Assembly: GCA_951804945.1 (NCBI GenBank) | Contig: OX638152.1 | Span: forward strand, 43,276,001 to 43,340,000 | Reading direction: 5' to 3' | DNA from: Podarcis cretensis | Taxonomy: Eukaryota | Length of the DNA stretch: 64,000 nt | Program-made: the position numbers and the translations under genes | The notes under the pieces: generated by a model | The model's input: the letters and a program-made list of their open reading frames with translations, nothing else | Told to the model about the DNA's origin: nothing | The model's database searches: none | Shown: positions 2,651 through 61,724 of the stretch, in pieces | Numbering within the stretch: position 1 is the first letter of the stretch | How the letters are laid out: the number at the start of each line of letters is the position of its first letter

Positions 2651-2961
2651 GTTCGCCACCCCACCCCAAAGCTATAGTTTTGGTTAGCCCACATAGAAAA
2701 ATCAAGCTTCTCTGCCCAACTTCCAACCCAACTAAATCTCACACATTCTTTCTCATACAAACAGTTTATTTTTATTTTTCTCCTTCCGAGGAGGATTTGG
2801 CATCCAGCCAAGTGAGATAGGGAGAGACCCACCCTCTCTTCATTGGGAAGATTAGAACTGGAAATAAACAAGGATTTTACTGTGATGCTATGGAAAGAAT
2901 TATAGTAGAATACCTCCCATTCCAGTCAAATATATATATTTACCCTATTCTATACTATCTA

Positions 2962-3219
2962 CAGTGGTACCTCGGGTTAAGTACTTAATTCATTCCGGAC
3001 GTCCATTCTTAACCTGAAACTGTTCTTAACCTGAAGCACCACTTTAGCTAATGGGGCCTTCTGCTGCTGCCGCGCCGCCGGACCACGATTTCTGTTCTCA
3101 TCCTGAAGCAAAGTTCTGAACCCGAGGTACTATTTCTGGGTTAGTGGAGTCTGTAACCTGAAGCATATGTAACCTGAAGCGTATGTAACCTGAAGCATAT
3201 GTAACCCGAGGTACCACTG
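2962..3219 (+). mobile_element. Tc1/mariner (Tigger-like) MITE
   Basis: TIRs CAGTGGTACCTCGGGTTA / TAACCCGAGGTACCACTG, TA target duplication on both sides, three internal 17-bp TGTAACCTGAAGCRTA repeats. Confidence 0.9.
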
Positions 3220-3884
3220 TATACCCTTTCCTTCTCATGGGTATCTTATCATGAACCACTTGAAACTGGACACGTCCCCTCAATATCCCATGTTCCAATT
3301 GTAGTGAGATTTTTAAAAAGAAGATACACATCCGATTGTCAGATCTGAAGTGCTTCCAGAAGGAAATAAATGGATCAGGGAGAAGCCTTCTTTAAAATTA
3401 CTCTCTATATCCTTTTGTAAACTCCATTTTAAAGGGGTTTTCTGGCTTGCCTACACCAGGGCTCAAACTATATTAGAGTTATATTAGTTTTGACCTAAAA
3501 TAAGCCTTCTATGGGAGCAGAATAACTTGCTGAAGATTTGGCTGGAAAGTGGATGCCAGAGATACAATCAAATCTATCACACTTGTGGGTAAGCAGGCAC
3601 AACAAATAGTTTTAAGAATCTCGCACTAGTTGTGCAGAGCACAGAAGTGCTGGCTAGCATTTCACACAGCACATAAATGATGGGATTCACTACTACAAGA
3701 CGTAGTAACAGCCAGCAACTTGGTTGGCTTTAGAAAGGTGTTAATGGAGGACAATGGCTTTCAATGGCTGCAGTATTGGAGACAGTATGACTCTGAGCAC
3801 CAGAGGCTGGGTGTCACGAGCGGGAAGAACACTGTTGTGCTCATGTCCTGCTTGTGGGCCTCCCATAAGCATCAAGTTGACCAA

Positions 3885-9573: not shown

Positions 9574-9806
9574 TTCATCTAGCTTTGTACTGAAAATGCT
9601 AAAGTCTGTGGAATATCATGAATAGCAAATGCTGCCATCTCGTGTTCGCTGATGGCAGCAAAAGTCAAGAGTTAACCTTTGTTTTGATAACCGAGTACAT
9701 ACTGCAGTTCCTCTCACCAATGCAAGATTGTCTATGAAATGTAATAACTACCAAGCACACAGGTGCAAATATTTGAAAGAAAGTGCACCTCACCATCTGC
9801 AAGTTA

Positions 9807-10040
9807 CAGTGATACCTCAGGTTACAGACGCTTCAGGTTACAGACGTTTCAGGTTACAGACTCCGCTAACCCCGAAATAGTACCTCGGGTTAAGAACTTT
9901 GCTTCAGGATGAGAACAGAAAACGTGCGGCAGCAGCAGTGGGAGGCCCCATAAGCTAAAGTGGTACCTCAGGTTAAGAACAGTTTCAGGTTAAGAACGAA
10001 CCTCCAGAATGAATTAAGTTCTTAACCCGAGGTTCCACTG
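9807..10040 (-). mobile_element. Tc1/mariner MITE, same family as 2962-3219
   Basis: TA-CAGTGATACCTC...GAGGTTCCACTG-TA; reverse complement of the 2962 element. Confidence 0.9.
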
Positions 10041-10095
10041 TAATTGCTTTGGATTCAGGGAATGTTTCAAATGATGAACCAATGCTGGACTAGAT

Positions 10096-17959: not shown

Positions 17960-18670
17960 TTATTTATTTATACCCCGCCCATCTGGCTGGGTTTCCCCAG
18001 CCACTCAGGGCGGCATCCAACAGAACACTAAAATACAATAACCTATTAAACATTAAAAGCTTCCCTAAACAGGGCTGCCTTCAGATGTCTTTTAAAAGTC
18101 TGGTAGTTGTTTTTCTCTTTGACATCTGGTGGGAGGGTGTTCCACAGGGTAGGTGCCACTACCGAGAAGGCCCTCTGCCTGGTTCCCTGTAACTTGGCTT
18201 CTTGTAGTGAGGGAACCTCCAGAAGGCCCTTGGCACTGGACCTCAGTGTCCGGGCAGAACGATGGAGGTGGAGACGCTTCTTCAGGTATACTGGACCGAG
18301 GTCATTTAGGGCTTTAAAGGTCAGCACCAATACTTTGAATTGTGCTCAGAAACGTACTGGGAGCCAATGTAGGTCTTTCAAGACTGGTGTTATATGGTCT
18401 TGGCGGCCACTCCCAGTCACCAGTCTAGCTGCCGCATTCTGGATTAGTTGTAATTTCCGGGTCACCTTCAAAGGTAGCCCCACATAGAGCGCATTGCAGT
18501 AGTCCAAGCAAGAGATAACTAGAGCATGCACCACTCTGATGAGACAGTCTGTGGGCAGGTAGGGTCTCAGCCTGCGTACCAGATGAAGCTGGTAAACAGC
18601 TGCCCTGGACACAGAATTGACCTGTGCCTCCATGGACAGCTGTGAGTCCAGACCAGGCTGCGCACCTGGT
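17923..18670 (-). mobile_element. L2-clade LINE 3' fragment
   Basis: Encodes LDYCNALYVGLPLKVTRKLQLIQNAAARLVTG...LHWLPVRF...AFSVVAPTLWNTLP, with a (TTA)n tail. Near-identical to 22790-24190. Confidence 0.93.
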
Positions 18671-22789: not shown

Positions 22790-24190
22790 AGTCTCAAATC
22801 TTCCATTCTTGGGCAAGGTGATTGAGCGCGTGGTTGCTGAACAACTCCAGGCACGCCTGGAGGATGCGGACCATTTGGATCCCTTCCAATCGGGATTCAG
22901 GCCTCATCATGGGACTGAAACTGCCTTGGTCGCGCTGGTTGATGATCTCTGGTGAGCTAGGGACAAAGGTGAGAGTTGTTTCCTAGTTCTGCTGGATCTC
23001 TCAGCGGCCTTTGATACAATCGACCATAACATCCTTCTGGACTGTCTAGAGGGGCTGGGAGCTGGGGGCACTGTTATACAGTGGTTTCGCTCCTTCCTCC
23101 TGGGCCGTGTTCAGAAAGTGGTGGTGGGGGATGAGTGTTCAGACCCCTGGGCCCTCACTTGTGGGGTGCCTCAGGGTTCCGTCCTCTCCCCCATGCTTTT
23201 TAACATCTATATGAAGCTGCTGGGAGAGATCATCAGGGGGTTTGGACTGGGTGTCCATCAATATGCAGATGATACCCAGTTCTACCTCTCTTTCAAATCA
23301 GAACCAGTGAAGGCGGTGAAGGTCCTGTGTGAGTGCCTGGAGGCGGTTGGAGGATGGATGGTGGCTAATGGATTGAGGTTGAATCCTGACAAGACAGAAG
23401 TACTGTTTTTGGGGGACAGGGGGCGGGCTGGTGTGGAGGACTCCCTGGTCCTGAATAGGGTAACTGTGCCCCTGAAGGACCAGGTGCGCAGCCTGGGAGT
23501 CATTTTGGACTCACAGCTGTCCATGGAGGCGCAGGTCAATTCTGTATCCAGGGCAGCTGTCTACCAACTCCACCTGGTATGCAGGCTGATACCCTACCTG
23601 CCCGCGGACTGTCTCGTCAGAGTGGTGCATGCTCTAGTTATCTCCCGCTTGGACTACTGCAATGCGCTCTACGTGGGGCTACCTTTGAAGGTGACTCGGA
23701 AACTACAACTAATCCAGAATGCGGCAGCTAGACTGGTGACTGGGGGCGGCCGCCGAGACCACATAACACCGGTCTTGAAAGACCTACATTGGCTCCCAGT
23801 ACGTTTCCGAGCACAATTCAAAGTGCTGGTGTTGACCTTTAAAGCCCTAAACGGCCTCGGCCAAGTATCGTTCTGCCCGGACGCTGAGGTCCAGCGCCGA
23901 GGGCCTTCTGGCGGTTCCCTCATTACGAGAAGCAAAGCTACAGGGAACCAGGCAGAGGGCCTTCTCGGTAGTGGCACCCACCCTGTGGAACGCCCTCCCA
24001 TCAGATGTCAGAGCGATAAATAACTACCTGACATTCAGAAGACATCTTAAGGCAGCCCTGTTCAGGGAAGTTTTTAATCTGTGATATTTTAGTGTATTTC
24101 TGGTTTTTATGGAAGCCGCCCAGAGTGGCTGGGGAAACCCAGCCAGATGGGCGGGGTACAAATAATAAATTATTATTATTATTATTATTA
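22790..24190 (+). mobile_element. L2-clade LINE, 5'-truncated, with a nearly intact reverse transcriptase domain
   Basis: RT motifs VSNLPFLGKVIERVV, QSGFRPHHGTETAL, LLDLSAAFDTIDH, GVPQGSVLSPMLFNIYM and YADD. One in-frame TGA (22953-22955) and a frameshifting deletion near 23865. (TTA)n tail. Confidence 0.95.
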
Positions 24191-35809: not shown

Positions 35810-36380
35810 GCCATTTTAAAAAAATTAGAACCTATTTTTTTCATCATGCGATATGAATTATTAGGTATACTTACTAATAAGAATGTCTTCTTGAGTCTCA
35901 AAGCTTCCTTTTTAAAACACACAGAGTCTTCATTACTTAGACTCTCACCTTCCAGTTCTTGAATGTAGTGATCTACCCAAAGACACACAGATAAATCACC
36001 TGAATATTCAAAAATGCACTGTTAGCTTTCCTGCCCCGAGCTGATTGGCTGCAATGTCTCACTAATATTTTAATTCTTCCATGCCTCATCTCATGGAATT
36101 AAATGTGGCTGATTGTAATCTGGGTAGCTGCTTAATTCACCGCTGCCACCATTTCGTAGCTCTGAAACAATTATTGTTTTTGACAGCTTAATTGTCTGAT
36201 TATACATATGTTGTGGCATTTTAAGTAGCATTTGACTAAGTTAATTAAGATTTCTGGTAATTGTGTGGGTTTTGTTTAGGCCGTTTATGAGTGCAGAAAT
36301 GAAATATTACCATTCAGTTATTGATTAGATTTTCTGTTAGGACTGTATATACTAACATTGTCTCTGTAAGAATGGAGTTA

Positions 36381-36640
36381 CAGTGGTACCTCAGGTTAAG
36401 TAATTCGTTCAGGTTAAGTAACTTAATTCGTTCTGGAGGTCCGTACTTAACCTGAAACTGTTCTTAACCTGAAGCACCACTTTAGCTAATGGGGCCTCCT
36501 GCTGCCGCTGCGCCGCCGAGCACGATTTCTGTTCTTATCCTGAAGCAAAGTTCTGAACCTGAAGCACTATTTCTGGGTTAGCGGAGTCTGTAATCTGAAG
36601 CGTATGTAACCTGAAGCGTATGTAACCTGAGGTACCACTG
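36381..36640 (+). mobile_element. Tc1/mariner MITE, third copy
   Basis: TA-CAGTGGTACCTC...GAGGTACCACTG; matches 2962-3219. Confidence 0.9.
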
Positions 36641-38063
36641 CATAAGAATGTTTAGTTCCTGGGTATGTGGTCTTTCCTTCTGTAAGTTATTGAAGGAAAA
36701 AAATGAGAAACATGCAGGAAGCAATGCACTATAGAAACAGGAGAGAGGTTGTAGGGTGAGATTAAACAAATTCTGTTTTAGTTGCAGTGGTACCTTGGGT
36801 TAAGAACTTAAGGTACCACAGTCACCTTTGTTCTTCTGTTTGGTTTCACACCACATAATTCATTGTCATCCATTCCCACCTACCAAAATGAAGGAGATTT
36901 TTGGATGTTAGGTACATACCAGCTATTCATTTGAATTACTTGTGCTCTGCCCTTTAGTGTTGCCAGGCTGACTTCCATTAAAACAATAAAATCAAAAAAC
37001 ATTTTCAAAGTACATAATAGGACAATTTACAGTCATTAAAACAGTGAAAATCTTTTGAAATAATTTAAAGCGGGCTGAAATTTTTTTTAAAAGTATTTGC
37101 CAGCTGACATAAAGTCACCAGAGTAGGAGACAGGTGAAAGGTTTTTTCCTTCATGGGATGAGAACTCCATAGATGGGAATGCAGTTATGGAGGAGGCCCC
37201 CATCCATCTAACCTTCAGTTGCAGAATAGGGCTCTGCTAAGAGGAAAACTGGAAGACTGGCATGGTCAGCATTGGTGGCTTGGTCTGCTTGCACTGGCTG
37301 TGAGCTGTAGGGCCAGATGAACATTCCATTATCTCCAGCATCTAGCTTGGGAACTCCATTTATGGTACCAAAATGCCTCAATGAGTTCAGAATGCCATCC
37401 TGCAGCTTAGTCAACTGTTGTATCAGTTTATAACTTATCCTGCAGGATCTTCTTGGATCTCCTGCTGATATATGACTCTTCTTCCTCTCCTGCTACCTTT
37501 CCATCCTTCTCCTTTCTTCTTCTGCTCTTGAACTTTTCTGTGCACATATATTTCCCATTTGTGCTTGTGAATACTGCAGGATTTGACTGTGGGATAACCA
37601 AGGCAGTGCCCATGAGATCTGCTGCTACACTGCAGTGACAAGAGTCATGGGTTGATCTGACCACATGCATACAACCTTGCATTACTTTAGTTTATGTGCA
37701 ACATTAATGGTTCAGATAAAAGACTTCCATGCAAGGAAAGCTTTGATAATGGGCCAATACTCCTGAATGAAGGGACTCCTGAATGTTGATTACAGGCCAA
37801 TTAGTGTTCGTCTGTATTTTTTTTTTTTTAAATGGCATAGTAATTATGCATAGGTTCTGCATCACAAATTTCTCCTTAGCTGTAAAGTTGTCCTTGAAGG
37901 CCATGGAAATCTGCTACTATTTGGCATATTAACAGCAATATGGTAGAGACACACGTGTCAGAAATTAAATACCGGTTGCTTAGCAGTTTCATTCACCGTG
38001 TAGGAAACTTGTGTATTGAGGATATAGATCCCATTCAATTGTGGAAGTTTTCTTTATTGATAC

Positions 38064-38518
38064 TGTCAGGGAACTGCCATCGGCTCAGGAGCAAGAGGGG
38101 AGAGGCCGGATGGATTACAGAGAGCCCCCAAAGATCGTGGGAAGCAGCACCTCCTCAGCGGAAGAAGGAAGCCATGCCTCTAGTGGAGAGGAGCTTCAGG
38201 GCTCAGAAGGAGGCGAGGCGGTGCCAGGACACCTTGCCTGAGCAAAGCGGGGAGGAAGGAGGTCCTCCGTTACCCACGCCCTCCCTGCGCAGTAGGCTTC
38301 CGCGCCAAGAGGGGAGGCACAGATTGGGCGTCAAGAAACTTCTCTGCTGGGGAAGGTTTAAGCACCGCCCACTCACAGATTCTGCCAGTGAATGAGCAAG
38401 ACACGGAATAGTGGCGCTCTGCATGGTGAAGAGTTTTTGGCACCAAGAATGAGGCTTTACAGCTGACCAGGGAGGCATTTGCCTGATTGCTCTCGAGTAA
38501 CCCCCTGATATCCTTACA
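38064..38518 (+). mobile_element. Solo LTR (Gypsy- or ERV-like) with an internal frameshifted ORF
   Basis: TGTCAGG...CCTTACA termini, 5-bp TSD GATAC (38059-38063, 38519-38523). Confidence 0.85.
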
Positions 38519-39551
38519 GATACATTTCCAAATGTTTACAGATGCTAATAAGAAATTCATCAACTGCCTTCCCATATTTTCCATGTTGGATCAAGACACA
38601 AGTGTTTAGATACATGACAACAATATGGTGGGTGATTATAACTATTTCCCAATATTATCACAAATTAGACCATTTTTGCTAGTCAAGCGTGTTTCAGATC
38701 ATCAGAACCTTGACTGCAATTGGATTCACACTGCAAATAATAAAATGCAAACTGTTTCACAGTGTTCCTTGGGTTATCTCCAGCAGTTGTTTTAAGCATG
38801 CTGCCTGCATAAACAATGAAGGAATACATTTCTGAGAAAGTGAAATTTTTGAATGATGGTGACAGTGGCCTGGAGGAAGAAATTATGCTGTTATAGAATG
38901 TTAAATGTCAGGGGGAAGATGAATGTGCCTTAGTCTTTGAAGATTTAAATTGGGCCGATAGAAAGAAAGAAGTGATTAAATGCACTGTTAGTCAGCCACC
39001 CACTTTCGTTCCAATGAACATTTAAGTAGGAACTTCAAACAGACAGAGGAACAATGGATTTTCCTATGAGCAATTGTTTGTAAATCATGCATGTGAATTA
39101 TTTTTGTTGATACATTTGCGATAAGGCACCCTGAATATTCAGATTTGGACTGGCATTTTCTAAACTGGTGCCCTTCAGATGTTTTGAATTAGAACTTTAT
39201 TAGCCCCAGCTAGCATGGTACTTCTGTCAGTACCAGTACTATTTTAGCACCAAACATCTGGAGGGCATCAGCTAGAGTTGTAGAAAGTTGAGCTAGATCA
39301 TTGGTACATAAAAAACAAGGACAAAGTTATAATGGATGCTGGCATGGAGGAGTGAAGCAAATGTGGTTGAAAAAGATAAGTAATTGATCCTCTAACAAAA
39401 AAGTTTAATTTCTTAAATTGTTAAGACATTTATCTGCTTGTCATTATGACAAAAATAAAATAATGTAGTCCCAATAAGATATTTAGTGTCTGAAGCAGAC
39501 TGTCCAAATCACACAGTGCTGTTGGTAAAAAACATGGTAAAATTAGTAATG

Positions 39552-50118: not shown

Positions 50119-50327
50119 ACTGTGGGCAAAGGACATCAAAACTTCACATGACAAAAAAACCTATAGTGTAAGTAGGATGTGTTAATTTTATCTATATCAA
50201 TAGTGTGCTTTTCTGGTAGTCATCCAGAACACAAAGAATTGAATTACTGTGCATTTCAGCTCATTTCAGACCTAGAAAAACACATTTTTGATGTCCTTAC
50301 CCCACAATAAACACACACATACGCACA

Positions 50328-51153
50328 TGTCAGGGGTTCAGGAGCAGAGGCACAGGGAAGAGAGGAGATGGAGAGCGAAGGGGAAGAATCCGAGGGGAGC
50401 GTAGGAGAAGAGGACAGTGGACCGAGGGATTCCATGAGCCTCTCCAGCGAATTGGAAGATTCACAGAAGGGGGCGCCAGTGGCCAGGGGTAGGGGGTTCC
50501 CAAGGGGAACGCCCCAGGCGCAAGGGGGCAGCAGGGACTCCCAGAGCAGTAGTTGGAAATCAGGACCAGCTTCCCCACCAGAGCAGAGTGGGGGGGAAGA
50601 GTCCCAAGGATCGGGGGCAGTGCATTCCCCACCAGGGAGAGAAGATAAGGCAGGGCTGACCACACCTCCATCGGAGAGTCAGACAACGGAGGGGAGGTCA
50701 GATCCGGCCAGTATCCCGGAAGAGGGAAGCAGTGACAGAAGTAGTGTAACGGTCAGGAGGAAGGTCACTGGGTTGGCGCGAGAGGCAAGTTCAAATGTAC
50801 AGGAGAGCGGGACAGCAGAGAATGAGGATTGGGAACCGGGTCCTAAAGCCCGCCGGAGGGAGGGGGAGGAGCTAAGCGACTCAGCGTTGGAAGAGTCCAG
50901 AAAGGGCAATGCCCCAGCGGGCAGGAGGACCCAGAGGAGGAGAGAGCAGCGTAAAAGGTGGAGCAGGGCTAGGATCTTAAACTGGTGTCATAGGGGAGGA
51001 GACTCAGACGGTACTTCGCCGGTCTAGGGTTTAAGACGTAGAGCTGCGCGCTGCGGCTTTGAAATGGAAACTGAACCTCAATAAAGACTTTTGTACATAA
51101 CGACAGCCTAGCGTTGGTCCTCTGTGAGCTGGGACCTAGAGGCAGCTCTGACA
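50328..51153 (+). mobile_element. Young solo LTR (826 bp, Gypsy- or ERV-like)
   Basis: TGTCAG...CTGACA inverted termini, 5-bp TSD GCACA (50323-50327, 51154-51158), AATAAA at 51080-51085, CpGs retained. Confidence 0.92.
50368..51027 (+). CDS. LTR-encoded 219-aa acidic Ser/Glu/Gly-rich protein with an Arg-rich C-terminal motif (hypothetical)
   Basis: Uninterrupted ORF covering about 80% of the LTR, strong Kozak context (GAGATGG), frame open back to the LTR edge. C-terminal motif shared with the 38064 LTR. Confidence 0.5.
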   Translation: MESEGEESEGSVGEEDSGPRDSMSLSSELEDSQKGAPVARGRGFPRGTPQAQGGSRDSQSSSWKSGPASPPEQSGGEESQGSGAVHSPPGREDKAGLTTPPSESQTTEGRSDPASIPEEGSSDRSSVTVRRKVTGLAREASSNVQESGTAENEDWEPGPKARRREGEELSDSALEESRKGNAPAGRRTQRRREQRKRWSRARILNWCHRGGDSDGTSPV

Positions 51154-52269
51154 GCACACATCCATCAATACATGAAGTTGCATTGAAACACATAGAAAAC
51201 CTGTATTTGTGGATGTGTGGATTCTAATTAAACTTGGCACTGAGAAAAGAAAGAATTCGGGCTGACTATTCTGGCAGACATTTAAAAAAATTCTTATCAT
51301 AGAATTGTAAAGTTGGAAGGGACCCTAAGTATCATCTAGTCCAGCCCCCTATAATGTTGTCCTATATGGGGATTGAACCTGCAATCTTGGTTTTATCAGC
51401 AACTGAGCTTATCCTAATACATAACAAATATTCAATATTTTTAACTGTTTATACCTGAGGTCCCTTCCATGTGCACAAAACAAGCCTTAATTTGGGGGTG
51501 GGAGTGCATGCAGTTCTGTGCTGCCATGCAAGCCCTCTGGGCAGCATGCAGACTTTCCCAGTGGAAAGAGTTTGCTGGTATGGCCATTTGAAATTCTCAA
51601 GTCCCTCTGCACAGCAGGCTTTGCCTTGCAGTGGGCAGTGGTTTGGCACTTTAGCCATTAGGGACTGCTTTCCTGCGAGGAACTATGAACAGGCATACAG
51701 GCTTGAGATACCTTTGCATGCTGTGATGAAGTTCTACATACCTAGCAGTGCAAAGCCTTCCACTCCTAGTCTCTGTGTGTAACAGTTCACAGAACAGCAC
51801 GAAGGAGTGAACTTGTTCTGCTCATTCTTTCTTCAACCTGACCTAGCCTGTAAAGGAGATAAAGTCCTTTTTGCCTGACATCTGTTTCCAAAACAATGTT
51901 TCAAAGACCTGTCAAAAGCACATGCTGTGTCGTACTAATCTGAAAGATGCTGTGCTTGGTCAAGAAGTAGGGCAAGGATAAGTGACTCAAAATTTGTGCT
52001 GGTAGGTGGGGAGATACCCTATCACAATGACACAAGCTGGGGAAAGAATGACACAGCAGTGAATGACCAAATGTTGTGATGTTCTGCTTGCTTTCTCTTC
52101 ATTTTTCTTGCAAGACTAGGTCATCTGTTCCCCGCAATGGTCTCTGCACTTCAGGTGTTCATTCCTGAAGGCCTTTCGGGGTCAGTGGAATGAGGACAGT
52201 GGGCTTGTGGAGAGGGGCAAGTGGAAGTTCGTTTCTTTTGATGTAGAAATTCATATCCTGACTTTCAAA

Positions 52270-59410: not shown

Positions 59411-60821
59411 ATTTTGAAAGAGTGCTGTGGATACCTCATCCAGTTTCTGTTGTTTGCTTTTCCATGTCTCTGGGTAAGAGCCAGATCCAACAGAATTAAA
59501 ATGGATCTGCTTTAGTTTTATGATTTTAGGTGGGGTCTCCTCCACCCCTCAAATCAAATGAAAGTTTACATTGGTAGACTGCACAGTAAATTTAATACAT
59601 GGATCTTCACAAATTTTCCATAGAATGACAACAAAATCATCAACAAATCAGAGAACATAACTGTGGGCCAAGAGATGACCTGTGATATGCTGGTGGTTTT
59701 CCCTCCTACCTTTTCAGTTCCCCTACTTTCTGTTCAGGTGCTGATCAGAGCTTTACAAGGAAATAGAATTGGAACAGGAAGTGCAAAAGAGCGTGGTTTT
59801 TCTAATTTCCTCTTTTGGCTTTATGTACCACCTTCACCCACCAGGGCACACTGAGAGTGAGGCAGTCAGGGTTTGTGGGTACCATGAGAAGTCAAACACT
59901 CCATGATAACCAAGGGCACCATGTTGGTGACCTCAGGTTTAAGACTGGTATCTTGACCTGTCAACAAGACAAAGCAAGCATTTATTAAACTTCCAACCAA
60001 TACCAGAGGTGTTTCATTTCAAGTGAACCAAAGCACCCACTTTTCATAATCAGCAACATTGCCACCAACCAATGTTATGGCAGATACTAGATCTAAGCAT
60101 GCTATTAGCATTCTAAGGAGTATGTAAGATCAAATTCAAATATGAAAAACACTGTTAGAGTCTTTTATATTTTACTGATTAAAAACATTTCGTGCTCAAA
60201 AACTTTGGGGTTTTTGGGTATGCACTGTGTCCAAACACACAGAATTTGGGGGAACTAATATTTTTCCCTTACGGACACACCCCTCATTTTAGCTGTGCAT
60301 TGAGAACCGTGGGAGCACCCTATACCAAATCACATAAGCAATCTGTGATACACAGGCAGAGGTTGTTTTTCAGCGATCTAGTGTGAGGACAGGTGCCCCA
60401 GGAAAACAAATTATCTTAATTTTTTATCCTTTATCAAGTAGGCCCATTTCCCCCATCGGTTGGGCTTTAAGACTATTGTCAGCCATAATGCAATTATGCC
60501 TGGTCTTAGTCCAAACCCAATGAACCAGAGCTTGGCAACAGGAGCTAATGCGCCTTCTATATATTTTAAAAAGTGATCAGTGCATGGGAAAGTGTCTTCC
60601 GCTGAAATCTCTTAATCCTTTCTCTTTATCAGGTGTTTTTGCTACACTGTATGTGTTCATCTATGATACAGATTGTCAAAGGAATCGTTCCATTTGTCCA
60701 GTCATGCAAACTGTTAATTATGGTTTTCTTAATAAGTATAACAAACTAGGGAGTCAACGCATGCTTTATATTTTGCAAGGTTTCAGGTGGTTCATTGTGA
60801 TAACTGATTTGCTATTGCTTT

Positions 60822-61724
60822 GCCCAGGACTGTATATTGTCTCCCTGCTTATTTAACTTATATGCAGAATTCATCATGCGAAAGGCTGGGCTGGATGAAT
60901 CCCAAGCCAGAATTAAGATTGCCGGAAGAAATATCAACAACCTCAGATATGCAGATGACACAACTTTTATGGCAGAAAGTGACGAGGAAATAAAGAACCT
61001 CTTAATGAGGGTGAAAGAAGAAAGCGCAAAATATTGTCTGAAGCTCAACATCAAAAAAACTAAGATCATGGCCACTGGGCCCATCACCTCCTGGCAAATA
61101 GAAGGGGGAAGAAATGGAGGCAGTGAGAGATTTTACTTTCTTGGGCTCCATGATCACTGCAGATGGTGACAGCAGTCAGGAAATTAAAAGACGCCTGCTT
61201 CTTGGGAGAAAAGCGATGAGAAACCTTGACAGTATCTTAAAAAGCAGAGACATCACTATGCCGACAAAGGTCCATATAGTTAAAGCTATGATTTTCCCAG
61301 TAGTGATGTATGTAAGTGAGAGCTGGACCATAAAGAAGGCTGAATTGATGCTTTTGGATTATGGTGCTGGAGGAGACTCTTGAGAGTCCCATGGACTGCA
61401 AGAAGATCAAACCTATCCATTCTGAAGGAAATCAGCCCTGCTCACTGGAAGGACAGTTCCTGAAGCTGAGGCTCCAATACTTTGGCCACCTCATGAGAAG
61501 AGAAGACTCCCTAGAAAAGACCCTGGTGCTGGGAAAGATGGAGGGCACAAAGAGAAGGAGACGACAGAGGACGAGATGGTTGGGCAGTGTTCTCAAAGCC
61601 ACCAACATGAGTTTGACCAAACTGTGGGAGGCAGTAGAAGACAAGAGTGCCTGGCATGCTCTGGTCCATGGGGTCACGAAGAGTTGGACATGACTAAATG
61701 ACTAAACAACAACAACAACAACCA
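60822..61724 (+). mobile_element. BovB/RTE LINE fragment with RT motifs
   Basis: Encodes SPCLFNLYAEFIMRKAGL...GRNINNLRYADDTT...LKLNIKKTKIM and EIKRRLLLGRKAM; (CAA)n tail; frameshifted. Confidence 0.95.

Follow-up and report, generated by a model that had tools for sequence, protein, structure and literature searches.

The open reading frames of two solo LTRs in the window (the whole 64,000-nucleotide stretch of Podarcis cretensis DNA analysed here) are almost certainly the final 109 and 232 codons of a chromovirus Pol, with a conserved motif in its last ~35 residues. This motif is very probably the conserved tip of the integrase and not a separate small protein, and it likely serves as a nuclear-import or chromatin handle. 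The two LTRs, which we call LTR A and LTR B, show the marks of solo LTRs: TG..CA ends, a target duplication, many dispersed copies and matching full elements (Table 1). LTR A belongs to an older insertion family, the other A1 copies in the same genome being 88-93% identical, and LTR B is young, with best other copies that are 99% identical. Searching the genome gave 1194 first-look candidates for LTR A and 2882 for LTR B, with 40 scored per LTR, and perfect 5-bp duplications are present at 15 of the 20 A loci and 16 of the 20 B loci examined. Neither frame matches a Pfam family. By tblastn, the frame of LTR A matches clade-A Pol residues 1246-1334 (E 3e-12), and that of LTR B has 96% identity with a full-length element, L058, over residues 1033-1264 of its pol frame.

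Table 1. Positions of the two solo LTRs of the window and of the features within and around them.
Feature	Position	Strand	Remarks
Solo LTR A, family A1 of chromovirus clade A	38064..38518	+	TG..CA ends, target duplication
Target-site duplication GATAC, 5 bp, around LTR A	left 38059..38063, right 38519-38523		
Pol relic, last 109 codons: acidic/serine linker, then basic helical end	38065..38395	+	stop 38393-38395; frameshift in LTR A copy
Conserved motif, basic stretch and short predicted helix ending L-x-W	38288..38350	+	
Counterpart, by homology, of the 11-nt self-priming site in sister families, putative R start	38371..38381	+	DS codons overlap
Solo LTR B, chromovirus clade B	50328..51153	+	TG..CA ends, target duplication
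Target-site duplication GCACA, 5 bp, around LTR B	left 50323..50327, right 51154-51158		
Last 232 codons of Pol in LTR B	50329..51027	+	stop 51025-51027
Conserved motif, clade-B form	50923..50985	+	
Self-priming site, 11 nt, complement of the stretch that directly follows the 5' LTR in full elements, putative R start	51006..51016	+	
AATAAA, likely polyadenylation signal	51080..51085	+	

Elsewhere in the window lie reverse-transcriptase fragments (Pfam RVT_1; 22956-24023 and 60804-61169) that are likely LINE remnants, an inverted pair (18031-18650 and 23506-24165) and three related copies of a short MITE-like element with inverted ends (2960-3223, 9805-10042 and 36379-36644).

The frame is open from LTR base 2 in both LTRs, as the original prediction had noted, and we therefore suspected that it is read through from upstream. 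A pattern combining a purine tract with the start of the B LTR gave 115 PPT-LTR junction matches, compared with none in the control. In the clade-B element L058, whose two LTRs are 99% alike, gag is accompanied by a pol frame of 1264 codons that encodes RT, RNase H and, for the integrase, zinc finger, core and SH3. This frame continues across the PPT and for 232 codons into the 3' LTR, where its stop is the one that LTR B of the window also has. The frame from chromodomain to motif is uninterrupted in two of ten clade-B stretches (L058 and L063), the others being broken or deleted. The clade of LTR A comprises at least 8 LTR families that have their first and last codons in common. Among its sister families, 16 of 30 chromodomain loci are free of stops down to the motif (one more, a 17th, is interrupted by a stop within the chromodomain), and a pol frame of 1333-1380 codons ends at the motif in six of seven stretches; the LTR pairs are 98.7-100% identical. 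For family A1 itself, one of two pattern matches, L188, carries a decayed A1-type LTR behind integrase, chromodomain and PPT, with stops and a frameshift interrupting the sequence ahead of the PPT; we infer that the A1 frame, too, is continuous with pol. Pattern searches for an A1 5' LTR with a primer-binding site and for a generic junction each gave no match, and L137 and L186 are without usable element flank. The domain order PR-RT-RH-IN, with SH3 and a chromodomain after the integrase core, is that of Ty3/Gypsy chromoviruses. Pfam Chromo is matched in clade A (E 1.4e-10); clade B has no Pfam Chromo match, yet aligns to the same domain.

Two observations concern the spread of these elements in the genome. 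One very young clade-A family has dozens of copies with pol frames of 1333-1334 codons, and its LTR pairs are 100% identical in three of the five checked and 99.8% identical in the others, indicating recent activity. In clade B, 40 of 96 PPT-LTR junctions (4 of the 100 listed were excluded as duplicates or non-PPT) are no more than 2 Mb away from a contig end, against 4.6% expected; the corresponding counts are 4 of 100 for young clade-A loci, 1 of 28 for clade C and 3 of 40 for the best B LTR matches. The excess of clade-B junctions may stem from subtelomeric duplication or from the retention of older copies, a reading that draws on the flanks common to L026 and L039 at two chromosome ends.

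The tail behind the integrase of clades A and B has one design, made up of a degenerate chromodomain, FxGF motifs, an acidic linker and a basic helical end. Compared with the three-residue aromatic cage of HP1, the clade-A chromodomain keeps only the middle W and that of clade B none of the three residues; in a further clade, C, the cage is intact (Y-W-Y). Segments that consist of a helix, an acidic or Ser/Thr linker and FxGF lie between chromodomain and PPT, two in clade A and one in clade B (L132:5700-5970, L058, P0003, P0010, P0012-P0014 and P0136-P0140). Neither clade C nor 109 of the 118 related Pols have such segments, and the FxGF of P0135, a fused multi-Pol entry, was left out as a tail motif. 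The first segment is conserved like the chromodomain (pN 0.04 and pS 0.47 in one pair), its motif reading L/M-E-G-F in three P. muralis entries. Two LEDGF-family genes (LEDGF and HRP2) are present in the genome. A complex prediction of the second segment (35 residues) with a lizard LEDGF domain, made without alignments and without folded controls, scored 0.15 against a mark of 0.34 and speaks neither for nor against binding. For a clade-A sister family, AlphaFold2 predicts a folded chromodomain, a disordered linker and, in keeping with the helix suggested beforehand for the motif, a helix at L-L-C-W, all at low confidence (mean pLDDT 56, ~55-61 in the tail helix).

Clade C Pol also enters the 3' LTR. 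It reaches the basic end at 14 of 28 loci, 13 of them with RRSAR, and the LTR-encoded end contains RRSARL. Clade C was found at L141-L168 and L175-L177, and in L176 gag and pol form a single frame of 1544 codons. Another record, P0141, has a clade-C-like read-through tail of 119 residues with a different basic end, which hints at further end motifs.

The motif came to notice as a peptide common to two LTRs of low DNA likeness, and the core of that observation holds. The two 21-mers share 7 of 21 residues, five of the identical residues use different codons, and only 27 of 63 nucleotides are identical over the motif. The frameshift in LTR A, first placed near 38225-38240, is in fact a break at ~38205-38212; it is private to the window copy, since the acidic and basic parts stand in one frame in 15 of 19 other A1 copies, and 8 of the 19 have no internal stop. 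Two further likenesses had been included. We reject PEQSG(G)EE as a shared motif because it is not collinear, lying ~35 codons before the W in one LTR and ~135 in the other, and is also variable among sister families. The DS before the stop is likewise rejected as a protein motif, being out of register (W+10 versus W+6) and, in clade A, within the priming site. Shuffling upheld the 21-mer in the register chosen (100000 shuffles; p = 0.0009 by score, 0.003 by a count of 7 or more identities), but not once the search over both frames was allowed for: 95 global and 89 block shuffles, out of 300 each, reached the best observed ungapped score. A profile-to-profile comparison with hhalign recovered the same register at P = 0.0025, with a probability of only 11.7%. 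Taken on its own, the likeness of the A and B peptides is weak.

From their sequences and setting, the clade-A and clade-B motifs are best read as homologous, on the strength of their Pol-terminal position, the identity of the Pols, the offset of FxGF, the spacing from W to priming site, and the hhalign register. Pol identity is 54-57% between A and B and 47% to clade C (a ranking by identity, not a tree), and the first FxGF has an identical offset from the chromodomain in both A and B. When 1.84 billion representatives were searched with a motif profile, nine matches were returned, six from the same elements and three (P0005, P0008 and P0011) that we dropped as repeat-driven artefacts; there was no cellular homologue among the nine. 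Within the best 120 of 216 longer Pol homologues, the chromodomain could be located in 118, the tail behind it has a median of 11 residues and exceeds 60 in 15 of the 118, and the motif profile matched four proteins, all from P. muralis. The named relatives of the elements come from Podarcis muralis and P. lilfordi. The A/B motif has no match to RRSARL or to any family in Pfam, PDB and ESM Atlas, and a PDB sequence search returned the chromodomain only. The motif and tail design thus appear only in lacertid-type records, in databases that hold few squamate retroelement proteins.

Purifying selection acted on the peptide between families. Over the last 44 codons, 8 natural single copies, one from each clade-A family, give a pooled pN of 0.23 and pS of 0.64 in 28 pairs, which share ancestry and hence are not independent; this bears out the proposal that selection acted on the peptide rather than on the DNA. 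Identity by codon position over these codons follows the order 2 > 1 > 3, and the other two reading frames contain 10 and 13 stops, compared with none in the motif frame. For six clade-B pairs, pN/pS is 0.35-0.50 along the linker and 0.07-0.32 across the final 40 codons. Private variants were also examined within families. Those of 19 old A1 copies give a pN/pS of 1.13 and include 5 stops, and these copies decay neutrally after insertion. Those of 20 young B copies give 0.48 on few changes, a low value that was probably inherited from the source lineages.

The same stretch of LTR holds a site that appears to prime reverse transcription. In nine of ten A/B elements, 11-12 nt behind the 5' LTR are complementary to the LTR site (one with 6 nt), as they are in L057 (11 nt) and in two of three clade-C elements (10 nt), and the site has three clade-A variants, each with a primer site changed to match. 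This complementarity points to self-priming in the lizard A, B and C elements as in Tf1/sushi chromoviruses. By analogy, the priming site would mark the transcript start and the frame would fill U3. Lying upstream of that putative start, the frame is not expected to be transcribed from a solo LTR. In both LTRs of the window, 21 nt separate the end of the W codon from the priming site, and the L-L/I-L codons lie at ~-35 to -26 from it, where a TATA box is expected, so that part of the conservation of the motif may be at the level of DNA.

Two alternative explanations of the frame can be weighed against these data. The original prediction took the LTR frames to define a family of LTR-encoded proteins; the motif does recur in many LTR families, but free-standing proteins find no support, the frame being the 3' end of pol. 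An independent small protein encoded by the LTRs, and made from solo copies as well, is highly improbable. A start could be supplied by an in-frame ATG in the clade-B PPT or by an ATG at codon 14 in some B copies, and among young B copies the frame is open in 17 of 20 and private variants show the low pN/pS given above. However, the clade-A frame has no start of its own and is continuous with pol, the early ATG is missing from other B copies, leaving no conserved start, and the frame would lie upstream of the transcription start; old A1 copies decay neutrally, and in young B copies, only ~1% diverged, open frames are expected anyway. It is also quite unlikely that the conserved letters are overlapping promoter or RNA signals and the open frame a by-product of a purine-rich, stop-poor U3. 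Three observations are consistent with such signals: the DS codons, GAT TCT, are invariant in all 8 clade-A families and lie inside the priming site, several families have TTTTAT or TTAAA across the L-L/I-L codons, at the distance of a TATA box, and the 21 nt between W and priming site are fixed in the A and B LTRs of the window. Yet the L-L codons vary synonymously, the TATA likeness being gone in A1 and A2 (CTA CTC), pN is well below pS in linker and motif alike, and the other two frames contain the 10 and 13 stops given above. Moreover, the clade-C frame stops before the TATA-like element and still ends in a basic motif.

As the tip of the integrase, the motif would be made only as part of Pol, since in the genomic RNA U3 would occur solely at the 3' end, and solo LTRs would carry the peptide as a silent relic. 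Its arginine-rich stretch could be an NLS, or a nucleosome or DNA anchor on a long flexible acidic linker, and the short helix could bind a protein surface; together with the FxGF motifs upstream of the PPT, the end motif might take over from the cage-less chromodomain. Whether the tip is a nuclear-import or chromatin-gripping (tethering) handle seems to us evenly balanced; this role is suggested by the targeting motif that CRM elements have in the same place, by the RRSAR end of clade C, and by the loss of the cage together with the gain of FxGF segments in A and B. Somewhat unlikely, in our view, is that the tail acts inside the particle, with its basic end binding element RNA or cDNA, or the acidic chromodomain, and aiding packaging, reverse transcription or intasome assembly. 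The A and B chromodomains are indeed acidic and the tail end basic, in most other chromovirus Pols the tail is short and often basic (its median length over 118 proteins is 11 residues), and the Tf1 chromodomain is reported to promote cDNA binding. This leaves unexplained, however, the host-like RRSARL end of the sister clade and the FxGF motifs in the same tail, and the model shows only an isolated helix in the tail, at low confidence. Taking the tethering handle further, we tentatively propose, as possible rather than probable, that lacertid chromoviruses rebuilt their integrase tail as a string of host-mimicking motifs, partly from their own U3. Clades A and B would have swapped the cage for LEDGF/HRP2-binding TIMs plus a basic helical anchor, directing them to H3K36-methylated gene bodies as HIV is directed but via a cellular-style motif, and clade C would combine the cage with an HMGN-like acidic-patch anchor.

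On the features tested, the lizard elements appear to belong to the Tf1/sushi chromoviruses, a group that self-primes via a 10-12-nt primer site complementary to its own LTR (PMC4600332, PMC6317226). Like members of that group (GyDB V-clade: Sushi-ichi, Amn-ichi/ni/san), they have gag followed by PR-RT-RH-IN, a chromodomain at the integrase end, TG..CA LTRs and self-priming. They differ from these relatives in post-chromodomain tails of ~130-390 residues, where the median of 118 related Pols is 11, in the partial (A) or complete (B) loss of the cage, in the FxGF motifs and in the LTR-encoded end motif.

Parts of the tail resemble known host-binding motifs. The TIM / IBM that binds LEDGF/p75 and HRP2 consists of a helix with Phe, an acidic or Ser/Thr linker of 8-16 residues, and FxGF (PMC9987994, PMC10854676). 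The A and B segments fit this layout within a disordered region, a likeness of pattern only that makes binding putative; they lie outside the solo LTRs of the window, upstream of the LTR in full elements. The users of the domain that a review names are lentiviral integrases, not retrotransposons. If the FxGF segments do bind LEDGF or HRP2, a retrotransposon would share the lentiviral host tether via a cellular-style motif, a case that we did not find in the literature. RRSAR(L) is the core of the HMGN acidic-patch motif (PMC12487698), and the clade-C end, with RRSARL, resembles this nucleosome acidic-patch motif of HMGN and Dsup; the A/B motif, in contrast, is arginine-rich without RRSAR and is alike by position only. 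Ty3 integrase has a cage-less chromodomain that is repurposed to tether to host TFIIIB in yeast (bioRxiv 2021.07.27.453949). The A and B chromodomains similarly have no complete aromatic cage, whereas the LTR-encoded tail of the lizard elements sets them apart from Ty3, for which that preprint describes none. We found nothing published on the lizard tails or on FxGF in retrotransposon integrases, and the families and their Pol-LTR overlap may be catalogued in Repbase or Dfam. With three recently active sister clades that carry different integrase ends, this one genome amounts to a natural experiment on insertion-site choice.

The closest arrangement is that of plant CRM elements, in which the CR motif, a targeting motif, is encoded in the 3' LTR (PMC3059260, PMC3605345); the original suggestion of an undescribed system is not supported. 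As in CRM group A (CR motif / CHDCR), the lizard Pol enters the 3' LTR and ends in a terminal motif. Unlike CRM elements, in which the chromodomain was lost and tRNA-Met serves as primer, the lizard elements retain the chromodomain fold, self-prime and have a lizard host; centromeric targeting is not indicated, the young clade-A loci being dispersed, and CRM is compared here by arrangement. The apparent LTR protein family resolves to Pol tails in this known arrangement, a caution that a conserved, codon-biased frame in the solo LTR of a vertebrate chromovirus may be no more than a Pol tail. The extension of Pol into the 3' LTR, with a motif at its end, is the part shared with known elements, and the A/B motif and tail are the variant part.
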